From: Naegleria gruberi | Lineage: Eukaryota | Strand: one strand, 5' to 3' | NCBI GenBank assembly: GCA_000004985.1 | Contig: GG738923.1 | Length of the DNA: 64,000 nucleotides | Shown: positions 377 through 17,121 of the stretch, in pieces | How the letters are laid out: the number at the start of each line of letters is the position of its first letter | How positions within the stretch are numbered: the stretch's first letter is position 1 | The notes under the pieces: generated by a model | Database searches by the model: none | Seen by the model: only the letters and a program-made list of their open reading frames with translations | Told to the model about the DNA's origin: nothing | Translations under genes and position numbers: made by a program

Positions 377-1204
377 ATGTCTGATATTGCCACTATCGAA
401 CCTAGTGCTACACCATCCACTCCTAAAAAGTCATCACCAAAGGCTTCATGTTCTTCTACTCCTTCAAATAGTAGTAAACCAAATGGTGAAGCTATCAATG
501 TTTCCACTCCAAATTCAGCACTCCACTTGTCTAATCAATATGGTTTTCCATTGAATTATAATGGTCAAATTCAACTCATCTTTGGTAATATGTTTGCTGG
601 TAAAACCTCGGAATTGTTGAGAAGATTACGTAGATATCAATATGCTCAAAAGGAAACCGTATTGGTAAAGTACATCAATGATGACCGTTACAGTAAGGAA
701 AATGTGTCAACACACGACTTGGTTCAACAAAAAGCTATTCCGACAGATCGTCTCGAAAAGATTGCTTCACAATTGCTTGGTTATCATGTTATTGGTATTG
801 ATGAAGGTCAATTCTTCCCTGATTTGGTTGAATTCTGTGAAGCTGCTGCTAATGGAGGTAAAATTGTAATTGTTAGTGCTTTGGATGGTACTTTCCAAAG
901 AAAACAATTTGGAAATGTTCTTTCATTGGTTCCAATGGCTGAAAGTGTTGTGAAACTTAAGGCTGTTTGTATGGTTTGTGGTAAAGATGCTGCCTTCTCT
1001 AAACGTATCACTGATGAACAACAAACTGAAGTTATTGGTGGATCTGATAAGTATATTGCCACTTGTAGAAAGTGTTATATGACTAGAAATACTCCATATT
1101 CAAAGAAGAGTAAGAGCGTTTTCCAAGATTCCATGTTAGAAGAACATGAAGAATGCTCTGATTATTCTGAACATTGTGAAATTTTCTCTCCTCAAAAACA
1201 CTAA
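377..1204 (+). CDS. TK1: Thymidine kinase, TK1 family (275 aa), with a roughly 60-aa S/T/P-rich N-terminal extension and an acidic C-terminal tail
   Basis: True ATG at 377 in an A-rich context (ttaaacaATG). P-loop IFGNMFAGKTSELLRR aligns with TK1 IYGPMFSGKSTELIRR. VIGIDEGQFF aligns with the VIGIDEAQFF motif. Zinc-ribbon cysteines are present (CMVCGKDAAFSKR ... CRKCY). Stop is TAA at 1202-1204. Confidence 0.85.
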   Translation: MSDIATIEPSATPSTPKKSSPKASCSSTPSNSSKPNGEAINVSTPNSALHLSNQYGFPLNYNGQIQLIFGNMFAGKTSELLRRLRRYQYAQKETVLVKYINDDRYSKENVSTHDLVQQKAIPTDRLEKIASQLLGYHVIGIDEGQFFPDLVEFCEAAANGGKIVIVSALDGTFQRKQFGNVLSLVPMAESVVKLKAVCMVCGKDAAFSKRITDEQQTEVIGGSDKYIATCRKCYMTRNTPYSKKSKSVFQDSMLEEHEECSDYSEHCEIFSPQKH

Positions 1205-1698: not shown

Positions 1699-2799
1699 TT
1701 ACAACCTTGAAGGTCTATAGCTTGTCAATTTCTCTCGCATTTTCAATAACGTTCCAATAGAAGGAATAAAATACAGCGAGCCTAAAATATTAGTGGAAAA
1801 TCTCATAATATGATCATTGTGACCTTGTGGAGTGGCATATTCGCCCTTTCCAACCATGCTCTCCAATTGATGAATGAAGGTTTTTCCAGAGTTTGCATAC
1901 GAAATGAAGAATAATCCATGTTGTGATGAATTTCCAAAGCTCATTGATTGCCTCACAACCTCAATTTCATCTCCGTCCTTTTCTAAAGTGACACGAGCCA
2001 CATGGGAAGTTTCTGGCTTATTTTCCAACTCGATGCTATCCTCTTTCGTTCTTCCAATATCATTCTCTTGTTCTTTCAATGAAAGTGAATTGAAAAATTT
2101 GAGATTGTGAACCCATTTCTGAGCCAAGAGGAAACTATCCTTTTCATTGGTGAGGGTTGCCTCAATTTTCTCTTCCATTTCTTTTGGATTTTCAGTTCCA
2201 TCCTCGAATCCACTCAAATCTCTTCCAAGACCAGATTTCTTATTTCTTCTATGGAGGAATGCATAGGTTTCATCCTGAATTTTCTTTATCAATGGAGAAA
2301 TAAATTCATGATTTGCAAAATCCTGAGTAGCTCTAAAACAATTGTCCATATTTACAGATTTAATGTGAAGAAATAAATCTCCACCAGTATTTGGAAAACC
2401 ACCAAATTTACCCTTCAAATCTTTAGGATATTGTGGAAATATTTCTGCCTGCATATATTCTCTTACATAATCCAGTGAATTATCTTGTATATTTCCTAAA
2501 ATTGAATTGGTCAACTCATATCCAAATCCAACAGCAAACTGTGTGCATTTTTCTTTATTCCACCTCTCCATAATCTGCAAACAAGCTTCCACTAATTTAA
2601 AATAAATTTTCATAGCCTTCCCATTTGATGAACTCTTCAGCTCATCCTTCAATTCAATCGTAACAAAACAAGCATGATCCGAGATTGGAGTTAATATCGT
2701 CGATTGGCAATGTTTCTCACCATGCCGATGATGGTGATGATTCTCATGGTGTGCGTGATGATGATGGTGATGATTATGCAAGTGATGCAGTGAGGACAT
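1699..2799 (-). CDS. DyP-type (dye-decolorizing) heme peroxidase family protein, 366 aa, with a His-rich N-terminus (HHLHNHHHHHHAHHENHHHHRH)
   Basis: N-terminal hallmark QSTILTPISDHACFVTIEL resembles the GILTPxxxHAxFxxxD motif of DyP/EfeB. GFEDGTENP matches the GFKDGTxNP distal-Asp motif. TSHVARV fits the proximal-His region. ATG at 2797-2799 on the minus strand is preceded by an A-run. Stop TAA is at 1699-1701 (minus). Confidence 0.6.
   Translation of the reverse strand: MSSLHHLHNHHHHHHAHHENHHHHRHGEKHCQSTILTPISDHACFVTIELKDELKSSSNGKAMKIYFKLVEACLQIMERWNKEKCTQFAVGFGYELTNSILGNIQDNSLDYVREYMQAEIFPQYPKDLKGKFGGFPNTGGDLFLHIKSVNMDNCFRATQDFANHEFISPLIKKIQDETYAFLHRRNKKSGLGRDLSGFEDGTENPKEMEEKIEATLTNEKDSFLLAQKWVHNLKFFNSLSLKEQENDIGRTKEDSIELENKPETSHVARVTLEKDGDEIEVVRQSMSFGNSSQHGLFFISYANSGKTFIHQLESMVGKGEYATPQGHNDHIMRFSTNILGSLYFIPSIGTLLKMREKLTSYRPSRL
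2706..2790 (-). repeat. Imperfect CAT/CAC codon repeat encoding the poly-His tract of the DyP-like protein
   Basis: Plus strand reads catgccgatgatggtgatgattctcatggtgtgcgtgatgatgatggtgatgattatgcaagtgatg; the reverse complement gives runs of CAC/CAT (His) codons. Confidence 0.6.
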
Positions 2800-2967
2800 T
2801 TTTTTTCTACTTGATTTTTATGTTTGAGGAAAACTTCAAAATTTCCCGCCTCTGTAATCCTCTTCAATATTCAATTATAACTTTATGTTAATCTTAATAA
2901 ATATTATTAAATCAATTCATCAAACCTTTGATATTTATTGTAAACTTGCAAGTTCATCTTTAAAAAA

Positions 2968-6184: not shown

Positions 6185-7191
6185 ATGATGACAAGAAATT
6201 CTAGTCCGCTAGAAGGAAGAGAGGAGAATGGTGGACAACAAGATGATTTGAATGTTGTGTCATCAGCATCATCATTAACAAACTCATCATCATTTAATGG
6301 AAAGGATGCACAGCAATATGTGGGAGGAGTTTATAATAATAGACCCTCACCTATTAGGTATACATCACATTTAGGAATGCCAAAACATCAAAGTCCAAAT
6401 ACTGTGGCGAATGCAAATAGCTCTTCTTCAAATAGTGGTGGAGATGTGAAGGAAGAGGTGAATCCACTAAAGAGAAGATATTGTGATAATGATGATATGT
6501 TATTCGAGGTGCAAGAGAAACAATTACAAACACAGAAATATTTAACAATAGTACCATATGAAATCACCAATCATGATAGCGGTCAATTATTGACCTGTGT
6601 GAGAGGAAATAGACTTCCCATGTTGGTGAACAAGTTGGTTGATGAGGTGAATGAATATTTGAAAACTAATTCAGAAGAGGATGAGGAGGAAAAGGTTGTG
6701 GATGTGTATGCAATCCAAACAATGTTTTTGAATACAATTATGAGAATTGATTTATTTAATAACGAAGTGGGTGTTTATGATAGTGTTAAAAATAGAGTAT
6801 TTAAAGATTTGAAAATGGTAATGAGCCCTCCTGATTACTATCCGTTCAGTAAGTTTATTTTGAGTATGGACCTATTCACAATTTATCAGATTATCCAACA
6901 TTTTATGGAAAGGAAACTGATGAAGAATCTATTACAAATTATAACAAATTAATGGAATCTGATGAGATGTTTGATTTGAGGAAAAGTTATCAAACAAAAT
7001 ATACCAAAGCTTGGACTAAGGAGGAAAGAAAGAAATTCCAAGAAGGTTTAAAATTATTTGGTTATGGACATGATAGTAATAAGAAGATTGCTGAACATAT
7101 GGGCTCTTCAATTCACCCTAATCAAGTAGCTCACGAAAAACAAAAATTACAGCAACGTCACCAAAAGAAGAGAAAGAGAGCAAAGAAATAA
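6185..7191 (+). CDS. Myb/SANT (SHAQKYF-like) domain protein, probably one gene made of ORF 6137/6185-6952 plus ORF 6952-7191 joined by a short intron (candidate donor GTAAGT at 6849; candidate acceptors AG at 6889 or 6925)
   Basis: Likely start ATGATG at 6185 (the upstream LLLLIIIIIMM comes from a ttattgttattaatcatcatcatcat tract). The downstream ORF encodes WTKEERKKFQEGLKLFGYGHDSNKKIAEHMGSSIHPNQVAHEKQK, which matches the Myb/SANT pattern WTxEExxxFxxxLxxxGxGxWxxIAxxxG...QVxSHAQKY. The downstream frame is open back to 6853, exactly at the TAA inside the GTAAGT donor. The two ORFs abut with zero spacing (TAA at 6950-6952, ATG at 6952-6954). Confidence 0.45.
6849..6925 (+). other. Putative 77-nt intron (alternative 41 nt, 6849-6889) joining the two Myb-gene ORFs
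   Basis: GTAAGT at 6849-6854. AG acceptors at 6888-6889 and 6924-6925 both give intron lengths of 2 mod 3, as needed to move from frame 2 to frame 1. Intron AT content is lower than in the confirmed ligase intron, so this is tentative. Confidence 0.3.
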
Positions 7192-7205
7192 CTGTGGAAT
7201 CAATT

Positions 7206-10004
7206 TTATGGTCTTTCGGCTAACATTTGATTAATGTTGAGAATAATGGAAGAGTAGACTGTGACTGATTCTAAATAGTTTTGAATGAGGATTCTTTCAT
7301 TGTGACCGTGAATTCTTTGGAGATCTTCAGTCTTCTTTACGAGTCTCATTGGCAAATAGCCATATGCAAAATCACTCAACTTTCTATAATACTTGCTATC
7401 ACTACCAGCAATAAATAAATAAGGTGAAACAATCACATCTGGTTGAATATGATTAATTGCTCTCTTTACAACTTCAAACTCTACACAATCAACACAAGAT
7501 ACAGAGGAAGCTTCTTGACAATCGATCATTAAAGGTGTGACGGTAATGTTTGGATGATTGACAACCTTTTCCAAGTGGCTCTTGACACTTTGCAAATTAT
7601 CATACGGAGAGAATCTAGTATTGAGAATAAAGTTTGCCTTAGATGGCATTACATTACTTTGGACACCAGCAGCCACAATGGTTGGAGCAAAGCTAGTTCT
7701 AGCCAAAGCATTTGGTGGACCACCAATATAAGACAATGCAATACTCAAAGGATAGGCCAAAATATCAAGATTTGCAACAATGGCCTTCATGATATAACCT
7801 TCAGAGTGTGGAGCCAAACTGAGGAGAACATTATGAATGATTGGTTTAAGTAAATGGGCAGGCATTGGATTATTTTCAATTTCAAGGATGGCCTTTGACA
7901 ATGTTCCAATACAGCTAGTTCTTCCTGGCATGGAAGCATGACCTGGATTACAATTGGCTTGAATGTCGAAATTACAATAGCCCTTTTCTGCAATGGCAAC
8001 AAAGGCAATTGGAGAGGCAACACCTGGAAATTGTTGGTCAGCAATTTGACCTCCTTCATCCAAAACAAATGCAAATCTGACATTCTTCTTCAAAAAGTAT
8101 GAAGTAACTTTGGCAGCTCCATGAACTCCTCCAATTTCTTCATCCATACCAATAACAACATAGGTATCTCTTTGAGGTTTAACCAATAAATTTTCTCTTC
8201 TCAATTGATTAAGAGCTTCCAAAATTTCATAAACTCCATTCTTATCATCCAATGTGCCTCTTCCATGCAAGAAACCATTCACTTGTTTACCACTAAATGG
8301 TGGATATTCCCATTTAGATTCATCATTGATTGGCACAACATCCACATGTCCAGTCAATAGAACTGGTTTCTTTTCCTTATCACTTCCTCTCCATACCCAA
8401 ACTCTCGAAGCAAGAAAATCATCCTCTCCCTTAACTTCACTTTGAATAATATCTTGAGTAATTTCCTCCAAAACTCCCTCACTTTCAGAGAATAAAAGTG
8501 GGAAATCCTTCACCATTTGATCAAACAATTCATGGAAAAGTTGTTTATCCTTCTGATAATCAATAGTTGGTTTCTGAATAGCCCTAGCCAATCTCAACAC
8601 TGCATCAGCCTGTTCCTCCTTGCTCCAATTTAATTTACTAAATTGTTCGGAAGCCTTTGATTGTTCAATTCTCTTTGAAAATTCCAAATCTCTTTCTTTA
8701 ATAATTTTCATATTAAATGTATAGGTTCGGAATGCCATCAATCCAATCAACCCGATCGCAGCCAAGAATAATAATTTTAAAATCGATTTGATGAGTGAGC
8801 ACGCAAGATTTGAAATGGCCATTTTTTTAAGATGAAAACGGAGTGAATGTTCGGACAATTGTGCAGATGGACATTTTATGCATGGTGAGATGAAAGTTGT
8901 TTTTTGAGTTTCTCCAAAGATTATATCAGAAACAGATTTGATATCATCTTCTGAGGTAGCATTAACAATATGATAGGAATCAAGTGTATTTCTATCTATT
9001 TTCTTGAAATATTGTGTAATGATCGAGTTGATAACTAGTTTAAGATAATGATTAGCAATTTCTGATCTTTCTAATTCTGGTAAAATATTCGAAACGAGTT
9101 CTCTATCATATTTCACTCCATTTTCCAATTTTTTACAAAGAATATCTGGTTTTACAAAGAGAATGATCTTACGAGAAGGAATAAACCATCTCGTATTCAT
9201 AACCTCACCAATTAGGGATAGAGATTCGTCCATTCTTTGAACACTGTCATCTTCCATTATAGTTTGATTAAATTCTGAAAGAGAAACCATGTAAACTAAT
9301 GTATGAACATCCTCAAAGAAATGAATCCAAATCTTTCTTGAATTTCTCCTTCCCACAACATCAATCACTTGAATTTCAGTGTTTCGTCTCGTAATAGTTT
9401 CGTATATTGAAATTCCTTTAGATGTGGAAGAAATCAATGAATAGGGAGAAAATATTTTCCCACGTTCAATTCTCAAAACTAATTCCTTAACATTTTCGTA
9501 CATTGAAATTCCACCTCTACTCCACACCAATTCATAAAACTCTCTAAAAAAGGAAATTTTCCACAGATTGACCAATATTTCAACGCAATCTATTTTTTGC
9601 AATTCCATTTCTAAACAGTTGCTAGCATTATCTGTTGCACTTTCGAATAATAATCTCATCTCAGGTCGAATAATTTCTTTCAACAAGTAATTTCTCTCTT
9701 GCTCTCCCATCTCTTCCCAAATTCTCTCAACAACCAGCGAGCAGACAATTTGCAAATTATTTGCAAAGTTTGCTTCCATGTCGTCACGAAAAGTTGTTTC
9801 TATTCTTGTTTCGGTTTTTGCTGTTCTTGTTTCGGTTGTTGATACGAGTTGTAACATGTGAAATAATGTTGATTTGCCAGAATCGGAGGGACCTAGTAGG
9901 AGAACTTTTGAACATGGGCGATTTTTAATAATATTATAATTGGATTGTGTTAATGTGACATTTGGATTGGCGTTTGACTTGGTGTGTGATGGTTTTGTGC
10001 CCAT
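7206..10004 (-). CDS. 932-aa chimeric protein: N-terminal degenerate G-protein alpha-subunit-like domain (about aa 1-390), one transmembrane helix, and a C-terminal carboxypeptidase S-like M20A metallopeptidase (about aa 430-932)
   Basis: G-alpha part: MGTKPS (Gly2, Ser6 myristoylation pattern). P-loop KVLLLGPSDSGKST (plus strand about 9845-9910). Helical-domain-length insert. Switch I ISSTSKGI instead of RVKTTGI. Switch II DVVGRRNSRKIWIHFFEDVHTLVYMVSLSEF aligns with [31 protein letters not shown] (plus strand about 9337-9372). IILFVKPDIL replaces IILFLNKKDLF. VNATSED replaces TCATDT. TM helix LIKSILKLLFLAAIGLIGLMAF (about 8735-8800). M20 part matches yeast Cps1 throughout: WRGSDKEKKPVLLTGHVDVVPINDESKWEYPPFSG (about 8331-8360), GRGTLDDKNG, VVIGMDEEIGGVHGAA, FVLDEGGQI, IAEKGYCNFDI, HGHNERI. 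The ORF is continuous with no stop between the domains. Confidence 0.7.
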   Translation of the reverse strand: MGTKPSHTKSNANPNVTLTQSNYNIIKNRPCSKVLLLGPSDSGKSTLFHMLQLVSTTETRTAKTETRIETTFRDDMEANFANNLQIVCSLVVERIWEEMGEQERNYLLKEIIRPEMRLLFESATDNASNCLEMELQKIDCVEILVNLWKISFFREFYELVWSRGGISMYENVKELVLRIERGKIFSPYSLISSTSKGISIYETITRRNTEIQVIDVVGRRNSRKIWIHFFEDVHTLVYMVSLSEFNQTIMEDDSVQRMDESLSLIGEVMNTRWFIPSRKIILFVKPDILCKKLENGVKYDRELVSNILPELERSEIANHYLKLVINSIITQYFKKIDRNTLDSYHIVNATSEDDIKSVSDIIFGETQKTTFISPCIKCPSAQLSEHSLRFHLKKMAISNLACSLIKSILKLLFLAAIGLIGLMAFRTYTFNMKIIKERDLEFSKRIEQSKASEQFSKLNWSKEEQADAVLRLARAIQKPTIDYQKDKQLFHELFDQMVKDFPLLFSESEGVLEEITQDIIQSEVKGEDDFLASRVWVWRGSDKEKKPVLLTGHVDVVPINDESKWEYPPFSGKQVNGFLHGRGTLDDKNGVYEILEALNQLRRENLLVKPQRDTYVVIGMDEEIGGVHGAAKVTSYFLKKNVRFAFVLDEGGQIADQQFPGVASPIAFVAIAEKGYCNFDIQANCNPGHASMPGRTSCIGTLSKAILEIENNPMPAHLLKPIIHNVLLSLAPHSEGYIMKAIVANLDILAYPLSIALSYIGGPPNALARTSFAPTIVAAGVQSNVMPSKANFILNTRFSPYDNLQSVKSHLEKVVNHPNITVTPLMIDCQEASSVSCVDCVEFEVVKRAINHIQPDVIVSPYLFIAGSDSKYYRKLSDFAYGYLPMRLVKKTEDLQRIHGHNERILIQNYLESVTVYSSIILNINQMLAERP

Positions 10005-10229
10005 TTTTTTAAAGTTGAATTGCTTTCAGATACCTACAAAGAATTGAATGAAAATTTATTGTAAAGGAGTAACAGAACTTTCGAATAAAAAATTGCCAAT
10101 TACAATGTAATGTTTTTTCAAAGTTTCCAACAAGATTAATATAATCAAGGTCACTTCATGGACTTTGAGTTTCCAAATATCTTCCAGATTCGTCTCCTTT
10201 CGTTTCACAAACATCAAACCACAAAAAAA

Positions 10230-10433
10230 ATGTCTGACTCACTTGCGATTGGCATTGGAGCTGGAGTTGGAGGATTCGCAGGTGTTAGCATTCTTCTCAT
10301 TATCATCATTATTGCCATTGTACTATATCGGAGGAAAAGGAGACACCAGAGGAGAGGTTATATCGAGCAAGAAGGAGATTATTCGCATTATTATGCTGCC
10401 TCTGGTGAGACACTGCCAGGACATTTGCATTAA
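10230..10433 (+). CDS. Small single-pass membrane protein (67 aa): MSDSLAIGIGAGVGGFAGVSILLIIIIIAIVLYRRKRRHQRRGYIEQEGDYSHYYAASGETLPGHLH
   Basis: ATG at 10230 after an 8-A run. Glycine-zipper-like GIGAGVGGFAG followed by a hydrophobic stretch (TM), a basic stop-transfer RRKRRHQRR, and a Tyr-rich tail. The ORF-track start at 10158 is non-ATG, so 10230 is preferred. Confidence 0.35.
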   Translation: MSDSLAIGIGAGVGGFAGVSILLIIIIIAIVLYRRKRRHQRRGYIEQEGDYSHYYAASGETLPGHLH

Positions 10434-10832: not shown

Positions 10833-12356
10833 ATGAATGCATCGAAAATTCTACGACTTTGCTTTGTGATAAGTGTGTGGATGCTACTGCTTAATAATCA
10901 GCTTGTTAAGGGTTGTTTGTTCGGCCAAGTCATTAAAGAAACACTCGATGGTTCTTGTCAATATACCTATCAACACTATGGTTCTAATATTGGTTTTGTC
11001 GTGTCCTCCGATTTTGGCAAATATCAATACAAGTTAGAGCATATTGATAAGTGTGATGATTATTGCAAAAAGCTATATGCAAAGACTCAATTATTTATAA
11101 TGGATGCACTTGTCTTTTCTTTGGTTGATTTTGATCCAAACTCAGCTCATAGAGATGAAGGTTGGACACTAACCTTCTCCTATTATAATCTGGGTCCCAT
11201 GTGGGATATTGATCCAACCAAATTGACAATCAATATTACTACAAAGGATGGACTTGAAAAAATCCCTGAAATTAATATACCTGCTCAAGGAAATCAGTGG
11301 TATTCTCTGGTTAAGTTTAATGATTTTTTGAGAGATGGTATTCAAGAATTTAGAATTTCTCTAATTTCTCTGACTGGTCTTATTCCATTGAATGCAAATC
11401 TAGATCAAGAATATGATCTTGATTACCCTAGGTCTGTTAACTTTGTTGGAGACAAAAACAAAGTTCAAATGAATATTCTGGAATTATCTGGATTGCCTAC
11501 TAGAATTACTCTTTATAACGAGCAGCCTAACCAACTATTGAATTTTGCATGTTTCAAAAATAATGTCTATAACACAATGGGGAATTATAGATGGGAATCT
11601 AGTGGATCAATTTCAGATGTTTTAACTACCGTAACTCTTTCAAATATGACAACAGATGTCTTTGGAAATTTGGTGAGTGTGAATGCGACAACTCTTGAAT
11701 TGAATCTTGAAAATCCAAATTCTCTTTATGATAGCCTAACATCAACTCATTCTAAATATCTTGGCGGTTCTTCAGTTGCTAGCACTCTTACATTACAAGA
11801 TGGTAATATATTGAGAATTATGGCAGTTGACAAGGCATTCAGACAGCACTGCATTACTCCAAATCAACAAGTGATTGGATCAATGAAATTTGGACAAGTA
11901 ATCTCTTACCGAGTCCAAATATATCCTCAGCCATTTAGCAGTATTGGACAAGTCAACCTCAACATCTCTACATACACAAGTGTTCTATTCCTTCAAACCA
12001 CTCACTATGATGCAGACAGTTCTCAATTATGTTCATTAGCAGATCATGTGGATTTTGAAACTGAAGTCACCATCAAAGGAATGGATGTACATCAACCACT
12101 TTCGATTTCCAATGCAAAAAGAAACCACTTGATCGCCATGAATTTATTCTTTATTTGTAAGGCAGAGGAAGGTTGCAATTTTGATTTTACTCTTTCTGGA
12201 GGAACATCTCACAACCCAATTGATGAGACAACCATTATTATTGTGTCAAGCATTGCAGGAATTGCCTTGATTTTAAACATTATTGCCTTACTCGTAATGG
12301 TAGTAGTAGTTTATTTGACTATTAAACGAAGAAAGGTCTATGTCAGTATTCAATAA
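10833..12356 (+). CDS. Type I membrane glycoprotein of unknown function (507 aa), with a signal peptide, a large N-glycosylatable ectodomain, a C-terminal TM helix and a 12-aa cytoplasmic tail
   Basis: ATG at 10833. N-terminal MNASKILRLCFVISVWMLLLNNQLVKG has a hydrophobic h-region. Many N-x-S/T sequons (NIT, NMT, NAT, NIS). C-terminal IIIVSSIAGIALILNIIALLVMVVVVYL is followed by TIKRRKVYVSIQ and stop. Confidence 0.55.
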   Translation: MNASKILRLCFVISVWMLLLNNQLVKGCLFGQVIKETLDGSCQYTYQHYGSNIGFVVSSDFGKYQYKLEHIDKCDDYCKKLYAKTQLFIMDALVFSLVDFDPNSAHRDEGWTLTFSYYNLGPMWDIDPTKLTINITTKDGLEKIPEINIPAQGNQWYSLVKFNDFLRDGIQEFRISLISLTGLIPLNANLDQEYDLDYPRSVNFVGDKNKVQMNILELSGLPTRITLYNEQPNQLLNFACFKNNVYNTMGNYRWESSGSISDVLTTVTLSNMTTDVFGNLVSVNATTLELNLENPNSLYDSLTSTHSKYLGGSSVASTLTLQDGNILRIMAVDKAFRQHCITPNQQVIGSMKFGQVISYRVQIYPQPFSSIGQVNLNISTYTSVLFLQTTHYDADSSQLCSLADHVDFETEVTIKGMDVHQPLSISNAKRNHLIAMNLFFICKAEEGCNFDFTLSGGTSHNPIDETTIIIVSSIAGIALILNIIALLVMVVVVYLTIKRRKVYVSIQ

Positions 12357-12585: not shown

Positions 12586-15500
12586 ATGGTAGGTTGATAA
12601 TGGTAATTTTCAAGGTAGATAATGATGGATAATTTGATGATTTGTGTTTATTATTATTTTTGTAGGCATCTAGATCCTCTTCATCTTCATCAAAGGATAA
12701 TTCGGGTAGATTCTCTGAATTTGTTGCCCTCTGTAAAGACATTGAAGAGGTATCGGCTCACACTGAAAAGAGTCAAGTGATGAAGGAGTTTCTATCCGAT
12801 TTCAAGGGAGATGTTTATTTGTTGTATAAATTATTATTTGCAAAGGAAAATCAGAGAAAGTTTAATTTAAAAGATAAGAAACTTGTTGATGTTTGTGCAA
12901 GTGCATTCGGAGAAGATCTTGATGAAATGATTGATCACATGGATTCTAAAGGAGATGTTTCTGAAACTTTAAAGAAATATTTAGTGAGAAGTGATCATGC
13001 AAGAGATAAAGGAATTGTTACTTTGAAACAGGTTGATGATTTCCTTGAAGAATTAACACAATTATCAAAGAAAGAAGATCAAATTCGTGCTTTTAAGAAA
13101 TTTGTAAATGATAAGTTAACTGGAGATGAATTGAAATTTATATGTAGAATAATTTGTAAAGATTTAAAGATTAGAGCTGGACCAAAATATTTATTAGCAG
13201 CACTTCATTCTGATGCTTATCAATCCTATATTTTAACACATGATTTGAAACAAATTGTAAATGTTATAACTAGTGGAAGTGATTTAAAAAATTTATCAAT
13301 GACAGCTCAATCACTTTTAGATATTGATGCATTGATTAAAGATGCAGATAGTGATGATGAAGGTACAAATTTTGATATGATGAATATATCAGATGATGAA
13401 GATGATAAAAAGAAGAAATCATCCAAAGCAACTTCTTCCAATGATAAAAAGAAGACAATTGATAAAAAGAAGAGTAGTAAATCATCAGATAATTCTGATA
13501 AGGATGATGATTCTGGAGATGAAACAGATATTGGTGAAAATGTGGATGATATTGAGGAAAAACCTGAAGAACTTGTAGATGAAGAATCAGAGGATGATTC
13601 TAAAAAGAAAAAGAAGAATAAGAAGGCTCCTAAGAAGATTAAAATATCAACCAAGATGAAACTTTTCCATCCTGTCAAACCAATGCTTGCTCGTCCAAGT
13701 AAGACTTATGATGATGTTATTGCTCGTTGTCCAAATGGTTTTTATTCTGAACTTAAATATGATGGTGAAAGAATTCAAATTCACTATGATAGAAAAAATG
13801 ATGAAATCAAATATTTTAGTAGAAATTTGAAAGATGTTCAAGAGTATAAGATCAAATCTGTAAAAAAGTATATTTCTAAAGCTATTAAGGAAAAGGTTGA
13901 ATCTGTAATTTTAGATGGTGAAATTTTAATGATGGATACAAAGACAAATAAGATTCTTCCATTTGGTACACTTGGTAAAAATGTTAGACAAGATCACAAA
14001 GATGCTGTAACAACTATATTTTTATTTGATATATTGTATTATAATGGTAAATCACTCCTTTCAGTTCCTTTATATAAGAGAAAGGCATTAATGACTAAAA
14101 TTGTAAATCCAATCAAACATAGAGTAATGTTAGGTGAATATTTGGTTGTAAAGGGTTCAAAACAAACAAGAGAAGCTATTGTTTCTGCTGAAATGAGTGC
14201 AATGATTAAGAAGGGTGAAGAAGGTTTAGTGGTATGTATTATTTTCAAATTTATTATTAATTTTTTTATTAACAATTTTACATATTAGTTAAAAGATTTA
14301 TGTTCTCCATATGAACCTAATGCTAGACATTGGCTTAAAATGAAAAAAGATTACTTGAAAGGTATGGCAGATAGTGTAGATCTTGTTGTTCTAGGAGCTT
14401 ATCTTGGTACAGGTAGTAAAGGTGGTTTAATGTCTGTATTCATGATGGGTTCTTTTGACAAGAAATTAGGAAAGTGGAGAATTATTTGTAAATGTGGTAA
14501 CGGACACGATGATCAAACTATTGAAACATTGAATGAAGAATTGAAATCAAATATGAAAAGAATCAGTAAGGATCCTTCATTGGTTCCAGATGATATTGAT
14601 ATTCATACTAATGCTCTTGTACCTGATTTTATTGTTAAAGATCCAAAAAAGAGTGTTGTTTGGGAAATTCAAGGAGCTGAATTTTCAGTTTCCTCAAGAA
14701 AAGACAGACCAATTTCTGTCAGATTCCCTAGAGTTACAAAAATTAGAGATGATAAGGATGTTTTAGATCATACCAATTATCAAGAAATTATCAAATTGAA
14801 AAATGAAAGTAATAGAAAAGGTTTAGTGCCTATTTTTGGAGATGCTGATGCAGGAGATGATTCTGATGAAAGTGTAGATGTAAAAGATAAAAAGAAACGT
14901 TCCAGAGCTAAAAAATCAAAATCTGATGATGAAGAAGATGAATCAGATTCAAGCTCAAAGAAAAAGAAAAATTCAAGAAAGAAGAAGATAAATTCCTCAG
15001 ATGATGAAGATGATGAGGATGATAAAAAGTCAGCTAAAAAGGCTAATGATAAGAAAAAATCAAAATCCTCAGATAATTCTGATGGTGAAGATGATGATCC
15101 AAAAGCAAAGAAAGCTAAAAAGTCAACTATTGGTATCAAATTATCTGATATTGATACTATTAATGACTCTTCTACTCCAGAACAAATCTATTACATTTAT
15201 GGTGATTTTATGAAAATGCCAATGAATAAGGAAGAAAAACTAATTTCACATTGTGTAGATGACTCTAGTAGATGGTCAGATAAAGGATCAATGGGAAATA
15301 TTGAACTCTTGTATGGTGAAGATATTAAGAAGGCTTACACTGATGATATGAACATAATTGGTGATGCTCAAATTGTTGTAGCATTACCAAATCATTTATG
15401 TAATATGGTATGTCTTCAATTTGTCAAGAAAGGATCTGCACCAAAAGTTGACTATCATGCTTTGGATGAATGTTTAAAGAAATGTGCTACCTACATGAAT

Positions 15501-15677
15501 CAAAAAAAGATTGGTACATTCCATTTATATAGATTGCATCACGCCATTTCTGGTTTGGATTGGAATAGAGTTGAACAACTTTTGAAGGAAAATCTTTCAA
15601 ACAAGGGATTTGCTGTTTTCATCTATACAAAGGATAGAGATGATAAGGATAGAGTTAATGAATCAAAAAATAAGTTG
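12586..15677 (+). CDS. LIG1: ATP-dependent DNA ligase I, three exons: exon 1 is the ATG only (12586-12588, or alternatively 12600-12602); exon 2 is 12666-14231; exon 3 is 14289 to at least 15677, where the 3' end is lost in the N gap. At least 986 aa. Carries two K/D/E/S-rich inserts and a C-terminal extension of about 190 aa beyond the conserved core.
   Basis: Exon 2 opens right after an acceptor ttattatttttgtag|GCA and encodes FSEFVALCKDIEEVSAHTEKSQVMKEFL (compare human LIG1 [28 protein letters not shown]). Motif I is ELKYDGERIQIHY (KxDGxR). Motif V EGLV is joined across the intron to LKDLCSPYEPNARHWLKMKKDYL (compare EGLMVKTL...YEIAKRSHNWLKLKKDYL). DLVVLGAYLGTGSKGG and ISVRFPRVTKIRDDK match the OB/conserved C-terminal motifs. 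Reading through the 14232-14288 intron gives the stop TAG at 14286-14288. Confidence 0.85.
12589..12665 (+). other. Intron 1 of the DNA ligase gene, immediately after the start codon (77 nt; 63 nt if ATG 12600 is used)
   Basis: aataataATG|gtaggt...tttgtttattattatttttgtag|GCATCT. Frame check gives M + ASRSSSSSSKDNSGRFSEF... in phase 0. No in-frame ATG exists in exon 2 upstream of the conserved region except this one. Confidence 0.55.
13341..13655 (+). repeat. Low-complexity coding insert (D/E/K/S-rich, about 105 aa) between the DNA-binding and adenylation domains of the ligase
   Basis: DADSDDEGTNFDMMNISDDEDDKKKKSSKATSSNDKKKTIDKKKSSKSSDNSDKDDDSGDE...KKKKKNKKAPKK, generated by GAT/GAA/AAG-rich triplets. 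It also creates the spurious antisense ORF 13307-13678. Confidence 0.7.
14232..14288 (+). other. Intron 2 of the DNA ligase gene (57 nt, GTATGT...TATTAG)
   Basis: Conserved motifs EGLV and LKDLCSPYEP are contiguous only after removing this AT-rich segment. It ends with an in-frame TAG, so it cannot be coding. Confidence 0.8.
14841..15125 (+). repeat. Second low-complexity D/E/K/S-rich insert (about 95 aa) after the ligase catalytic core. It contains a 15-nt exact copy (tcagataattctgat, 15069-15083) of a segment in the first insert (13485-13499).
   Basis: DADAGDDSDESVDVKDKKKRSRAKKSKSDDEEDESDSSSKKKKNSRKKKINSSDDEDDEDDKKSAKKANDKKKSKSSDNSDGEDDDPKAKKAKK. KSSDNSD is shared with the first insert at the nucleotide level. 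Confidence 0.7.
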
Positions 15678-15727
15678 NNNNNNNNNNNNNNNNNNNNNNN
15701 NNNNNNNNNNNNNNNNNNNNNNNNNNN
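15678..15727. other. Assembly gap (50 N) of unknown true length. It removes the 3' end of the ligase gene and the 5' half of the following kinase gene.
   Basis: Run of n characters. The flanking ORFs are both open into the gap. Confidence 0.95.
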
Positions 15728-16170
15728 CTGAAAAGAATGGTTAAATTGGTTGACTTTGGGTTGAGTTGTCAACCAACAGATTCACTAAGAAGGAACATAC
15801 ATTATTTTGTGGAAATAGTAATTATGCATGTCCTGAACTGTTACTAAAGAAGGCATATGGATCTGAAGTTGATGTCTATGCACTAGGAGTCCTTCTCTAT
15901 AAGATACTGTTTGGTTGTTTCCCATTTCGTGGAGCTCAACAGAAATTGCTCATGCACTTTACAGTCCCACTGAAGGATGATGTAAATGGAGATGATGCAA
16001 TGGGAAGTGATGATTGTGGTCAGAATATTTCGAAATGTTGTAAAGATTTGTTGCATAATATTTTGGAAGTCAATTGTGAAAAGAGATTTTCCATACAAGA
16101 TATCAAGAATCATCAATGGTACAAGATTGGAAAAACTCAGAAGGTGGATTTACTAGAAAGTCACGAATAA
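15728..16170 (+). CDS. C-terminal fragment of a Ser/Thr protein kinase (CAMK/AMPK-like catalytic subdomains VII-XI), with an apparent frameshift just after the DFG motif
   Basis: Frame A reads LKRMVKLVDFGLS (subdomain VII, 15728-15766). From about 15769, frame B reads STNRFTKKEHTLFCGNSNYACPELL (subdomain VIII, compare TxCGTPxYxAPE), VDVYALGVLLYKILFGCFPF (subdomain IX) and KRFSIQDIKNHQWY (subdomain XI). TAA at 16168-16170. The N-lobe is missing in the gap. Confidence 0.6.
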
Positions 16171-17024: not shown

Positions 17025-17121
17025 ACAATTTCATTAATCAAAATCTTTGATGTTGATATCATTCGAATGTTAAATAAGAATTGTAATCTCCAAGATATTC
17101 TCATAAAAAAACATAATTATA

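Follow-up and report, generated by a model that had tools for sequence, protein, structure and literature searches.

The extra-large G proteins (XLGs) of plants carry a G-alpha-like domain with non-canonical catalytic residues inside a larger polypeptide; the additional part is an N-terminal soluble extension, with no transmembrane (TM) segment and no enzyme domain, and the arrangement is conserved across plants. The PRK08262-type M20 family peptidases include yeast Cps1 (carboxypeptidase S) and mammalian PM20D1. In Naegleria and plants a regulator of G-protein signalling (RGS) domain is joined to a seven-transmembrane (7TM) region, with 28 such proteins in N. fowleri (PMC9283941). Here we examine a single 932-codon open reading frame (ORF) of Naegleria gruberi that runs from a G-alpha-like domain through a TM segment into an M20 peptidase. 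The window analysed is a 64,000-nt stretch of contig GG738923.1 (assembly GCA_000004985.1), of which 17,121 nt are real sequence, with N padding beyond position 17121 and a 50-N gap at 15678-15727; its GC content is about 33-35%.

We put at about even the chance that a fused 932-residue protein is made from this ORF, with or without a nested shorter isoform, after a recent lineage-specific rearrangement. Both halves belong to known families, and as far as our searches indicate their combination is found nowhere else in the searched proteins or in the literature. As in the XLGs, an atypical G-alpha would form part of a larger protein, but here the addition is C-terminal and membrane-spanning and occurs in one lineage. 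Like the 7TM RGS proteins, the ORF places a module of the G-protein cycle on a membrane-spanning region; the module, however, is a G-alpha and not an RGS domain, and the case is a single join and not a large conserved family.

Architecture of the reading frame

Pfam searches of the translation identified the first and last of its three parts. G-alpha (PF00503) matched aa 29-362 over profile positions 20-329 of 333 (E=5.5e-42; 144.5 bits, cut-off 48.8), Peptidase_M20 matched aa 549-922 (E=1.5e-24), and M20_dimer, the dimerisation domain, matched aa 671-819 (E=2.9e-10). Strongly hydrophobic 19-residue windows were confined to aa 396-430 (Kyte-Doolittle maximum 2.3). The first-pass annotation of this DNA had proposed a G-alpha domain, a TM helix and an M20 peptidase on one uninterrupted minus-strand ORF; the single ORF and the profile matches, which assign the N-terminal domain to G-alpha and the C-terminal part to Peptidase_M20 and M20_dimer, bear this out, and the motifs it quoted were all present in the translation where it had placed them.

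An AlphaFold2 model, built on an alignment covering both halves, had a mean predicted local distance difference test score (pLDDT) of 79, with values above 90 in the peptidase half. The N-terminal half was modelled at moderate confidence (pLDDT 50-79) because only four relatives cover it; its order of elements fits a G-alpha, namely beta1, alpha1, a helical insert at 72-180, beta2/beta3 and alpha2, and on to beta6 and alpha5. A single long helix occupies aa 391-455 with the TM segment inside it, and aa 366-395, which comprise the end of the G-alpha part and the spacer that follows it, are unstructured (pLDDT below 50). Features of the locus are collected in Table 1.

Table 1. Features of the fused ORF and its junction, in window coordinates.
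Feature	Position	Strand	Residues	Remarks
Continuous 932-codon ORF	7206..10004	(-)	1-932	Stop codon 7206-7208; begins MGTKPS; from ORF listing and translation
Gene-start motif TTCAACTTTAAAAAAATG at M1	10002..10019	(-)	M1	ATG 10004-10002; motif at three starts only on the contig
G-alpha-like domain	8877..10004	(-)	1-376	MGTKPS N-terminus, Ras-like domain with helical insert, end ...TTFISPCI
P-loop GPSDSGKST	9867..9893	(-)	38-46	Ser at the Gi1 G42 position, as subfamily-wide
Switch I SKGIS	9408..9422	(-)	195-199	No Arg at canonical Arg-finger position; Ser at Thr181 position
Switch II DVVGRR	9345..9362	(-)	215-220	Arg at catalytic Gln position; G-to-V window-specific
VKPD for NKxD	9144..9155	(-)	284-287	Subfamily-wide
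VNAT for TCAT	8955..8966	(-)	347-350	Subfamily: VNxT or VNTI
Rearrangement breakpoint	8876..8877	(-)		Stand-alone G-alpha homology stops at ...TTCATCTCACCATGCATA (8877); blastn, tblastn, DNA alignment
54-nt spacer, read KCPSAQLSEHSLRFHLKK	8823..8876	(-)	377-394	Probably former peptidase 5' leader; predicted unstructured
Internal gene-start motif TTCATCTTAAAAAAATG	8820..8836	(-)	M395	ATG of M395 at 8822-8820; orthologues P0001 and P0154 begin within a few residues
Hydrophobic signal-anchor/TM segment LACSLIKSILKLLFLAAIGLIGLMAF	8730..8807	(-)	400-425	Hydropathy; modelled helix; conserved in P0001
Predicted exoplasmic M20 peptidase portion	7209..8729	(-)	426-932	Pfam M20 and dimerisation-domain matches (see text)
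HVDVVP	8331..8348	(-)	553-558	Metal His553, catalytic Asp555
GRGTLDDKNG	8235..8264	(-)	581-590	Bridging Asp586
GMDEEIGG	8127..8150	(-)	619-626	General base Glu622, metal Glu623
LDEGG	8049..8063	(-)	648-652	Metal ligand Glu650
HGHNERI	7290..7310	(-)	899-905	Metal His899
Diagnostic peptide stretch KCPSAQLSEHSLR				Part of the predicted 932-aa product that a diagnostic peptide would cover

Relatives of the two halves are separate genes

Homologues were sought with HMMER, using the full 932-aa query against 1.84 billion representatives and considering the best 150 matches; the score floor of this list was 234 bits, and a fusion with 30-35% identity in each half would be expected well above it. No other protein covering both halves was present among these 150 matches, in keeping with the first-pass remark that no such fusion is known to have been described, and literature searches returned no description of a G-alpha-peptidase fusion. 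One candidate for a second fusion, P0004 (1003 aa, three matched stretches), proved to be a tandem M20 duplication from an ostracod.

The top matches each covered one side of the query. P0001 (532 aa) aligned with aa 402-932 only, at 62% identity, and P0003 (372 aa) with aa 23-377 only, at 69% identity; P0002, a 219-aa fragment, is 100% identical to aa 714-932. With the G-alpha half as query, a word-index search returned N. gruberi XP_002671433.1 (NAEGRDRAFT_59438, here P0152), a protein of 376 aa with 66% identity over 95% of the query, and also its paralogue P0151. The other stand-alone relatives that we compare, P0154 for the peptidase and P0160 for the G-alpha, are like P0001 and P0003 of metagenomic origin, the peptidases P0001 and P0154 being Naegleria-like, and P0160 clusters with P0152 at an identity of at least 90%.

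It had been proposed to check whether orthologues keep the fusion, and they do not: each half has its nearest relatives in stand-alone genes that lie at different loci, those of the G-alpha in L002, L004 and N. gruberi and those of the peptidase in L001 (JGI) and L005 (ENA). L002 carries the gene for P0003, followed by a convergent CoA-transferase gene, and in L004 the gene for P0160 lies between two unrelated genes on the same strand. At L001 and L005 the peptidase gene has an in-frame stop two codons before its ATG, in the start context taaaaaATG, with a divergent ZZ/PB1-like gene upstream and a homologue of orf6137 and TK downstream. We looked for a G-alpha remnant upstream of these two peptidase genes and found none; the ZZ/PB1-like gene occupies that place. 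Synteny between the window and L001 is kept 3' of the peptidase (the orf6137 homologue and TK) and is broken exactly at the peptidase 5' end. The fusion is thus probably recent and lineage-specific, to judge from these comparisons.

Two features of the G-alpha loci may be mentioned here. A 52-nt stretch at L004:304-355, within an LRR-like gene that precedes the L004 G-alpha, matches L002:1244-1295, just past the L002 G-alpha stop, in inverted orientation at 92% identity; this hints that the G-alpha loci of the subfamily have been reshuffled by segmental rearrangements. The first 50 nt of L002 (L002:1-50) resemble the 3' half of a tRNA (GGTTCGAGCCCACC...) cut by the contig end; ARAGORN reports none there.

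The G-alpha half

Searches of the PDB with the N-terminal half returned G-alpha chains, among them Gi/Gt/Go, the best being 6ne6 ('Galpha7', E=1.3e-25), which we take to be the N. fowleri G-alpha7 studied in PMC9283941. Identity to P0152, P0160 and P0003 is 65-69% across the whole G-alpha domain. The stand-alone members have in common a G(P/T)SDSGKST P-loop, in which Ser takes the Gi1 G42 position, VKPD, VNxT or VNTI, and the C-terminal sequence ...TTFISPCI; the MGTKPS N-terminus is common to the window copy, P0003 and P0160. The window copy shares the motifs and the ...TTFISPCI end with these proteins, which differ from it in standing alone and continuing into a conserved tail where it continues into spacer, TM segment and peptidase.

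Two general G-alpha motifs are present in the window copy, the P-loop GxxxxGK[ST] as GPSDSGKST and DxxG as DVVG. Its catalytic residues are substituted: the switch-II Gln, the Arg finger and the switch-I Mg-binding Thr are absent (DVVGRR, STSKGI). The guanine-specificity motifs NKxD and TCAT are likewise altered, to VKPD, which keeps the Lys and Asp, and to VNAT, which keeps the Ala. These substitutions had been noticed at first pass, and the Gln-to-Arg change, the missing Arg finger, VKPD and VNAT stand as described; the switch-I Thr, said to be lost, is in fact replaced by Ser. The substitutions do not mark degeneration driven by the fusion, for the stand-alone members share the P-loop Ser, VKPD and VNxT, and P0152, P0151 and P0160 also share GRR in switch II, where P0003 keeps DVGGQR. 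In switch I the stand-alone relatives read HCRT(T/A)G, with no Arg at the canonical finger position. All subfamily members examined thus lack the Arg finger and the Asn of NKxD, and most lack the catalytic Gln, P0003 being the one that keeps it. Changes specific to the window copy are the G-to-V in DVVGRR, Ser and Lys at the positions of T181 and T182 (S-K-G against T181-T182-G183 of Gi1), and several in-frame insertions, including one of 16 aa after alpha-1.

Several residues on which GTPases depend are retained, namely the P-loop Lys and Ser, the Asp and Gly of DxxG, the Lys and Asp of N/VKxD and the Ala of TCAT. Since these key binding residues are kept, nucleotide binding by the G-alpha-like domain is plausible, with hydrolysis expected to be very slow. 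At the position where the subfamily has Ser, the substitutions G42V and G42R disturb the GTPase cycle (PMC9283941).

All stand-alone members (P0003, P0160, P0152 and P0151; L002:1156-1245, L004:1945-2050), which are 372-391 aa long, extend about 30 aa past the canonical G-alpha end in a conserved C-terminal tail, IIPxNNRMxxCLFNxxLxEKLTDIQIITS. Conservation of the tail reaches as far as P0151, whose overall identity is only about 50%, and the tail has no Pfam match.

The peptidase half

The seven metal-binding and catalytic residues H553, D555, D586, E622, E623, E650 and H899 occupy columns that scarcely vary in an alignment of 41 sequences, 36 of them peptidase relatives, and an alignment with DapE agrees with their assignment as M20 metal and catalytic residues. 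In the PDB the C-terminal half matches M20 enzymes of the DapE, ACY1 and CNDP types, and a Foldseek comparison of the model with the PDB returned M20 enzymes (DapE, CNDP, CPG2) at target-normalised TM-scores up to 0.84 (DapE). The claim of an intact M20 active site is thereby upheld. Its further designation as a complete Cps1-type M20A peptidase is supported as far as the M20 family and the intact motifs go; the Cps1 type stays a putative label, the best NCBIfam models being PRK08262.1-1 (284 bits; cut-off 825) and PRK08262.1-4 (278 bits; cut-off 503), which both scored below their equivalog cut-offs.

P0001 and P0154 (532 and 533 aa) are about 60-62% identical to aa 402-932. They resemble the window protein in the TM segment (...GxIGLMxxRT), the active-site residues, six Cys, one sequon and a partly conserved downstream gene order, and differ in having only about eight residues before the TM segment and an in-frame stop just upstream of the ATG. 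P0001 begins MYLCGVCK and passes directly into the TM segment, so that, as had been supposed, a long G-alpha-like domain stands in the window protein in place of a very short cytosolic tail. Homology to the P0001 N-terminus begins a few residues past M395 (LACSLIKS... against LCGVCKL...) and continues into G-x-IGLM-xx-RT. All six ectodomain Cys are conserved with P0001, and one N-glycosylation sequon is common to both; with the single TM segment, these shared features fit a disulfide-bonded exoplasmic enzyme of putative type II topology. The ratio of nonsynonymous to synonymous rates (omega) of the peptidase half against L001 is 0.20, which marks this half as constrained.

The junction

DNA identity to L002 is 80% over window 9771..8878 and to L004 76% over 10010..8878, and both matches stop at 8878. 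The window sequence ...QKTTFISPCI aligns with the canonical G-alpha C-terminus ...NNLKDCGLF (Gi1 sequence), and for this reason the canonical G-alpha fold is complete in the window copy. After aa 376 the subfamily tail is missing, as is a stop codon, and the tail is encoded nowhere else on the contig. The 54-nt spacer that follows has no significant similarity to the G-alpha tails or 3' untranslated regions of L002 and L004, nor to the leaders of L001 and L005. Of random 54-nt intergenic pieces of the contig, 34% have no stop in a given frame, and an open, in-frame join of this length would arise by chance in about 11% of cases.

Two ways in which the ORF could conceal an ordinary gene end were considered and rejected. 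In a hidden frameshift, the +1 frame would read ...EKLKKQLSSHHA followed by a stop, giving a G-alpha of canonical length; the window's own frame, ...QKTTFISPCI, is conserved in P0003, P0152, P0151 and P0160, which rules this out. A hidden intron at the junction was rejected as there is no GTATGT donor within 8600-9100, the real intron on the contig starting with GTATGT. That intron (57 nt, GTATGT...AG, 14232-14288) divides an ATP-dependent DNA ligase gene at window 12777-15731 (+) into two ORFs; the gene runs into the 50-N gap.

We regard it as unlikely, though worth weighing with care, that the ORF is an artefact of sequencing or assembly, either through a one-base indel in the spacer that hides a stop or through a chimeric join of a G-alpha and a peptidase locus. 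Both other frames contain stops inside or just past the spacer, so that a single-base error there, for example in the A-run before the ATG, would split the ORF; protein conservation nevertheless anchors the frame up to aa 376 and again from M395 on, and any such error must fall within the 54 nt that alone lie outside, the specific +1 frameshift having been rejected above. A chimeric join is made easier to imagine by the short scaffold with its N gap, by the coincidence of breakpoint and synteny break, and by the absence of the fusion from any other record. It would, however, be in frame and open only at the chance level just given, it requires the conserved tail of the G-alpha to be elsewhere, and we see no sign at the join of a repeat that could have misled an assembler. 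How easily misassembly can occur is shown by the L003 contig of ENA metagenome ERZ929261 (run ERR1078381, project PRJEB11402), which carries an unrelated end of 108 nt.

This metagenome contains two pieces related to the window. The window TK protein is found exactly, at L006, and 1 kb of the peptidase gene is found at 99.5% nucleotide identity, at L003. The TK proteins encoded at window 377-1204 (+) and L006:1576-2403 are identical, and the leaders upstream of them are distinguished by an indel of 6 nt and by several substitutions; given these leader differences, the sequences indicate that the ERZ929261 organism is a close strain and not the same clone. L003:1-108 matches nothing in the window, and nt 109-1142 are 99.5% identical to window 7921..6888; either the end of the L003 contig is chimeric or the peptidase coding sequence contains a structural variant (at about aa 695).

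The internal start codon M395

M395 lies in the ATG context aaaaaaATGG, identical to that of M1. The context aaaaaaATG, shared by real gene starts on the contig, is present at two of the 23 in-frame Met codons, M1 and M395. Directly before the ATG, the 14-nt motif TTCAWCTTWAAAAA occurs at three sites on the contig: 2953-2966 (+), at the start of the UCH gene, 8823-8836 (-), at M395, and 10006-10019 (-), at M1. Chance would give about 0.35 occurrences, three were not reached in any of 100 shuffles, and the form TTAAAAAAATG yields the same three sites. Other starts on the contig share only the A-run and not the 14-nt TTCAWCTTWAAAAA, which from its placement may be an initiator or leader element of this genome.

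By its context and its position relative to the orthologues, M395 is the ancestral start of the peptidase gene, and the spacer is probably that gene's former 5' leader. Since M395 keeps the full gene-start motif, a nested stand-alone peptidase of 538 aa is probably still made from it. An isoform from this Met had been raised as a possibility at first pass, to which the start context and the motif now lend support; the MAISN start is present as M395, with its ATG at 8822..8820 and not at about 8819-8821 as then given.

The same observations admit a second reading, in which the juxtaposition is real and the halves are expressed separately: the peptidase from M395, the truncated G-alpha by way of a short-lived or non-stop transcript, and the 932-aa protein absent or a minor by-product. 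We think this somewhat unlikely, yet it is a serious contender. M395 keeps a complete start motif otherwise confined to gene starts on the contig, and the stand-alone orthologues begin at the corresponding point; L004 has tandem genes with a gap of just 49 nt; an open in-frame spacer is no rare accident; and relatives do not conserve the fusion. A separate G-alpha mRNA, on the other hand, would have to gain a polyadenylation site either in the roughly 54 nt that follow or within the peptidase gene itself, and an intact G-alpha ORF evolving like those of functional relatives (omega 0.42, see below) is hard to square with a product that is not properly made. Furthermore, an in-frame stop lies within 18 codons upstream of 10 of the 11 other gene starts examined, and M395 has none.

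Selection on the G-alpha half

Rates were estimated by the Nei-Gojobori method over 340 codons common to the window, L002 and L004. The synonymous distance (dS) is 0.42 between window and L002, 0.43 between window and L004, and 0.30 between L002 and L004, giving the tree ((L002, L004), window), with which four-taxon site patterns agree. Branch omega is 0.48 for L002, 0.33 for L004 and 0.42 for the window copy, the last being an average over the whole window branch, most of which may predate the fusion. A relaxation of selection on the fused copy had been suggested by a pairwise omega of 0.47 and by an excess of unique amino-acid changes (63 in the window copy, 35 and 19 in the relatives); the branch values do not bear it out, and because dS places the window copy outside (L002, L004) the excess reflects an earlier split and not relaxed constraint.

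These estimates bear on a further alternative, in which the G-alpha half is no more than a fragment of a truncated pseudogene in decay, lying 5' of a peptidase gene that still functions. The loss of the conserved tail, the greater number of unique changes and the window-specific changes at functional positions (G-to-V in switch II, Thr-to-Ser in switch I) are what such decay might leave. The branch omega, however, lies within the range of the relatives; an ORF of 376 codons would stay open with a probability of only about 0.001 after 100-130 neutral substitutions; the length differences from stand-alone relatives are all of whole codons, and the protein aligns in one frame throughout; and the start motif and the MGTKPS N-terminus are intact. 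By these sequence measures the G-alpha half is not a decaying pseudogene, and we hold that explanation to be very improbable. The window copy and its relatives are best described, on the same comparisons, as a divergent G-alpha subfamily specific to Naegleria, GTPase-deficient in appearance and under purifying selection (omega 0.33-0.48). With its conserved tail, this subfamily is a better-founded target for G-protein biochemistry than the fusion itself.

Proposed origin and products

We propose that the ORF arose by a rearrangement within this lineage that broke the DNA where the G-alpha fold ends and shortly before the peptidase start. A G-alpha gene has lost its 30-residue tail, its stop codon and its 3' end and lies 54 nt upstream of the original peptidase ATG; these 54 nt happen to be in frame and stop-free, so that the G-alpha frame runs on into the peptidase. 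Because the G-alpha gene has lost its own 3' end, transcripts from its promoter are expected to read through the peptidase gene. The predicted product is a 932-aa type-II membrane protein with a cytosolic, N-myristoylated G-alpha-like domain that would bind nucleotide and be impaired in hydrolysis, one TM helix, and an active di-zinc M20 carboxypeptidase or amidohydrolase that would face the lumen or the extracellular space. The locus would then give two nested products, the 932-aa fusion and the ancestral 538-aa peptidase.

Several points weigh against production of the fused protein. The fusion is absent from every relative found. The reading frame of the fused gene depends on how long exactly the short homopolymers of the spacer are, among them the run of A that precedes the ATG, and the chance frequency of about one in nine for an open in-frame join makes the in-frame state weak evidence of selection; to this is added the averaging of the window omega over its whole branch. 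At L004:826-874 a gap of just 49 nt lies between the stop of one gene and the ATG of its neighbour on the same strand, the G-alpha. Because the gap is so short, promoters in L004 must be tiny or overlap upstream coding sequence, and the 54-nt spacer could likewise serve as an ordinary intergenic region. The junction was also not recovered from an independent assembly, although the organism occurs in ERZ929261: exact look-ups with the 932-aa product and with the 538-aa product failed to yield one, as did look-ups with the ORFs nearby, JGI metagenomes yielded none by protein patterns or by an exact 28-mer across the breakpoint, and a word-index search with the junction segment gave no match, the negatives of that tool being weak as the full-length query itself returned nothing.

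If the fused protein is made, its G-alpha module would most plausibly, though speculatively, act as a membrane-tethered, permanently 'on-like' binding or sorting module and not as a timer GTPase, and the covalent TM anchor would replace the function of the lost tail. A stronger proposal is that the 932-aa protein is both made and selected, as a single-pass membrane protein of a new kind. In that case an extracellular or lumenal M20 carboxypeptidase or amidohydrolase would be hard-wired to a cytosolic, hydrolysis-deficient G-alpha-like switch, through which its substrate occupancy, its dimerisation or its trafficking would act directly on G-protein-type effectors or on beta-gamma with no 7TM receptor involved, or the G-alpha module would direct sorting of the peptidase; this we consider quite improbable. 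If made, the fused product would be the first example from nature of a G-alpha-type domain that a membrane helix links to an extracellular enzyme. The case would, in addition, represent a datable birth of a new signalling architecture, with one breakpoint, a former 5' leader that is read through and an old internal start that is retained.

Neighbouring genes

Divergent from the fusion gene, a predicted single-TM protein of 67 aa is encoded at window 10230-10433 (+), and beyond it, at 10833-12356 (+), a predicted membrane protein of 507 aa with an N-terminal signal-like segment and a C-terminal TM segment; neither has a Pfam match. On the other side of the fusion gene, a Dyp-type peroxidase gene (Dyp_perox_C, E=7.5e-39) at window 1699-2799 (-) lies head-to-head with the gene for the UCH-type deubiquitinase, 168 nt away, and could be an acquired gene of bacterial type.

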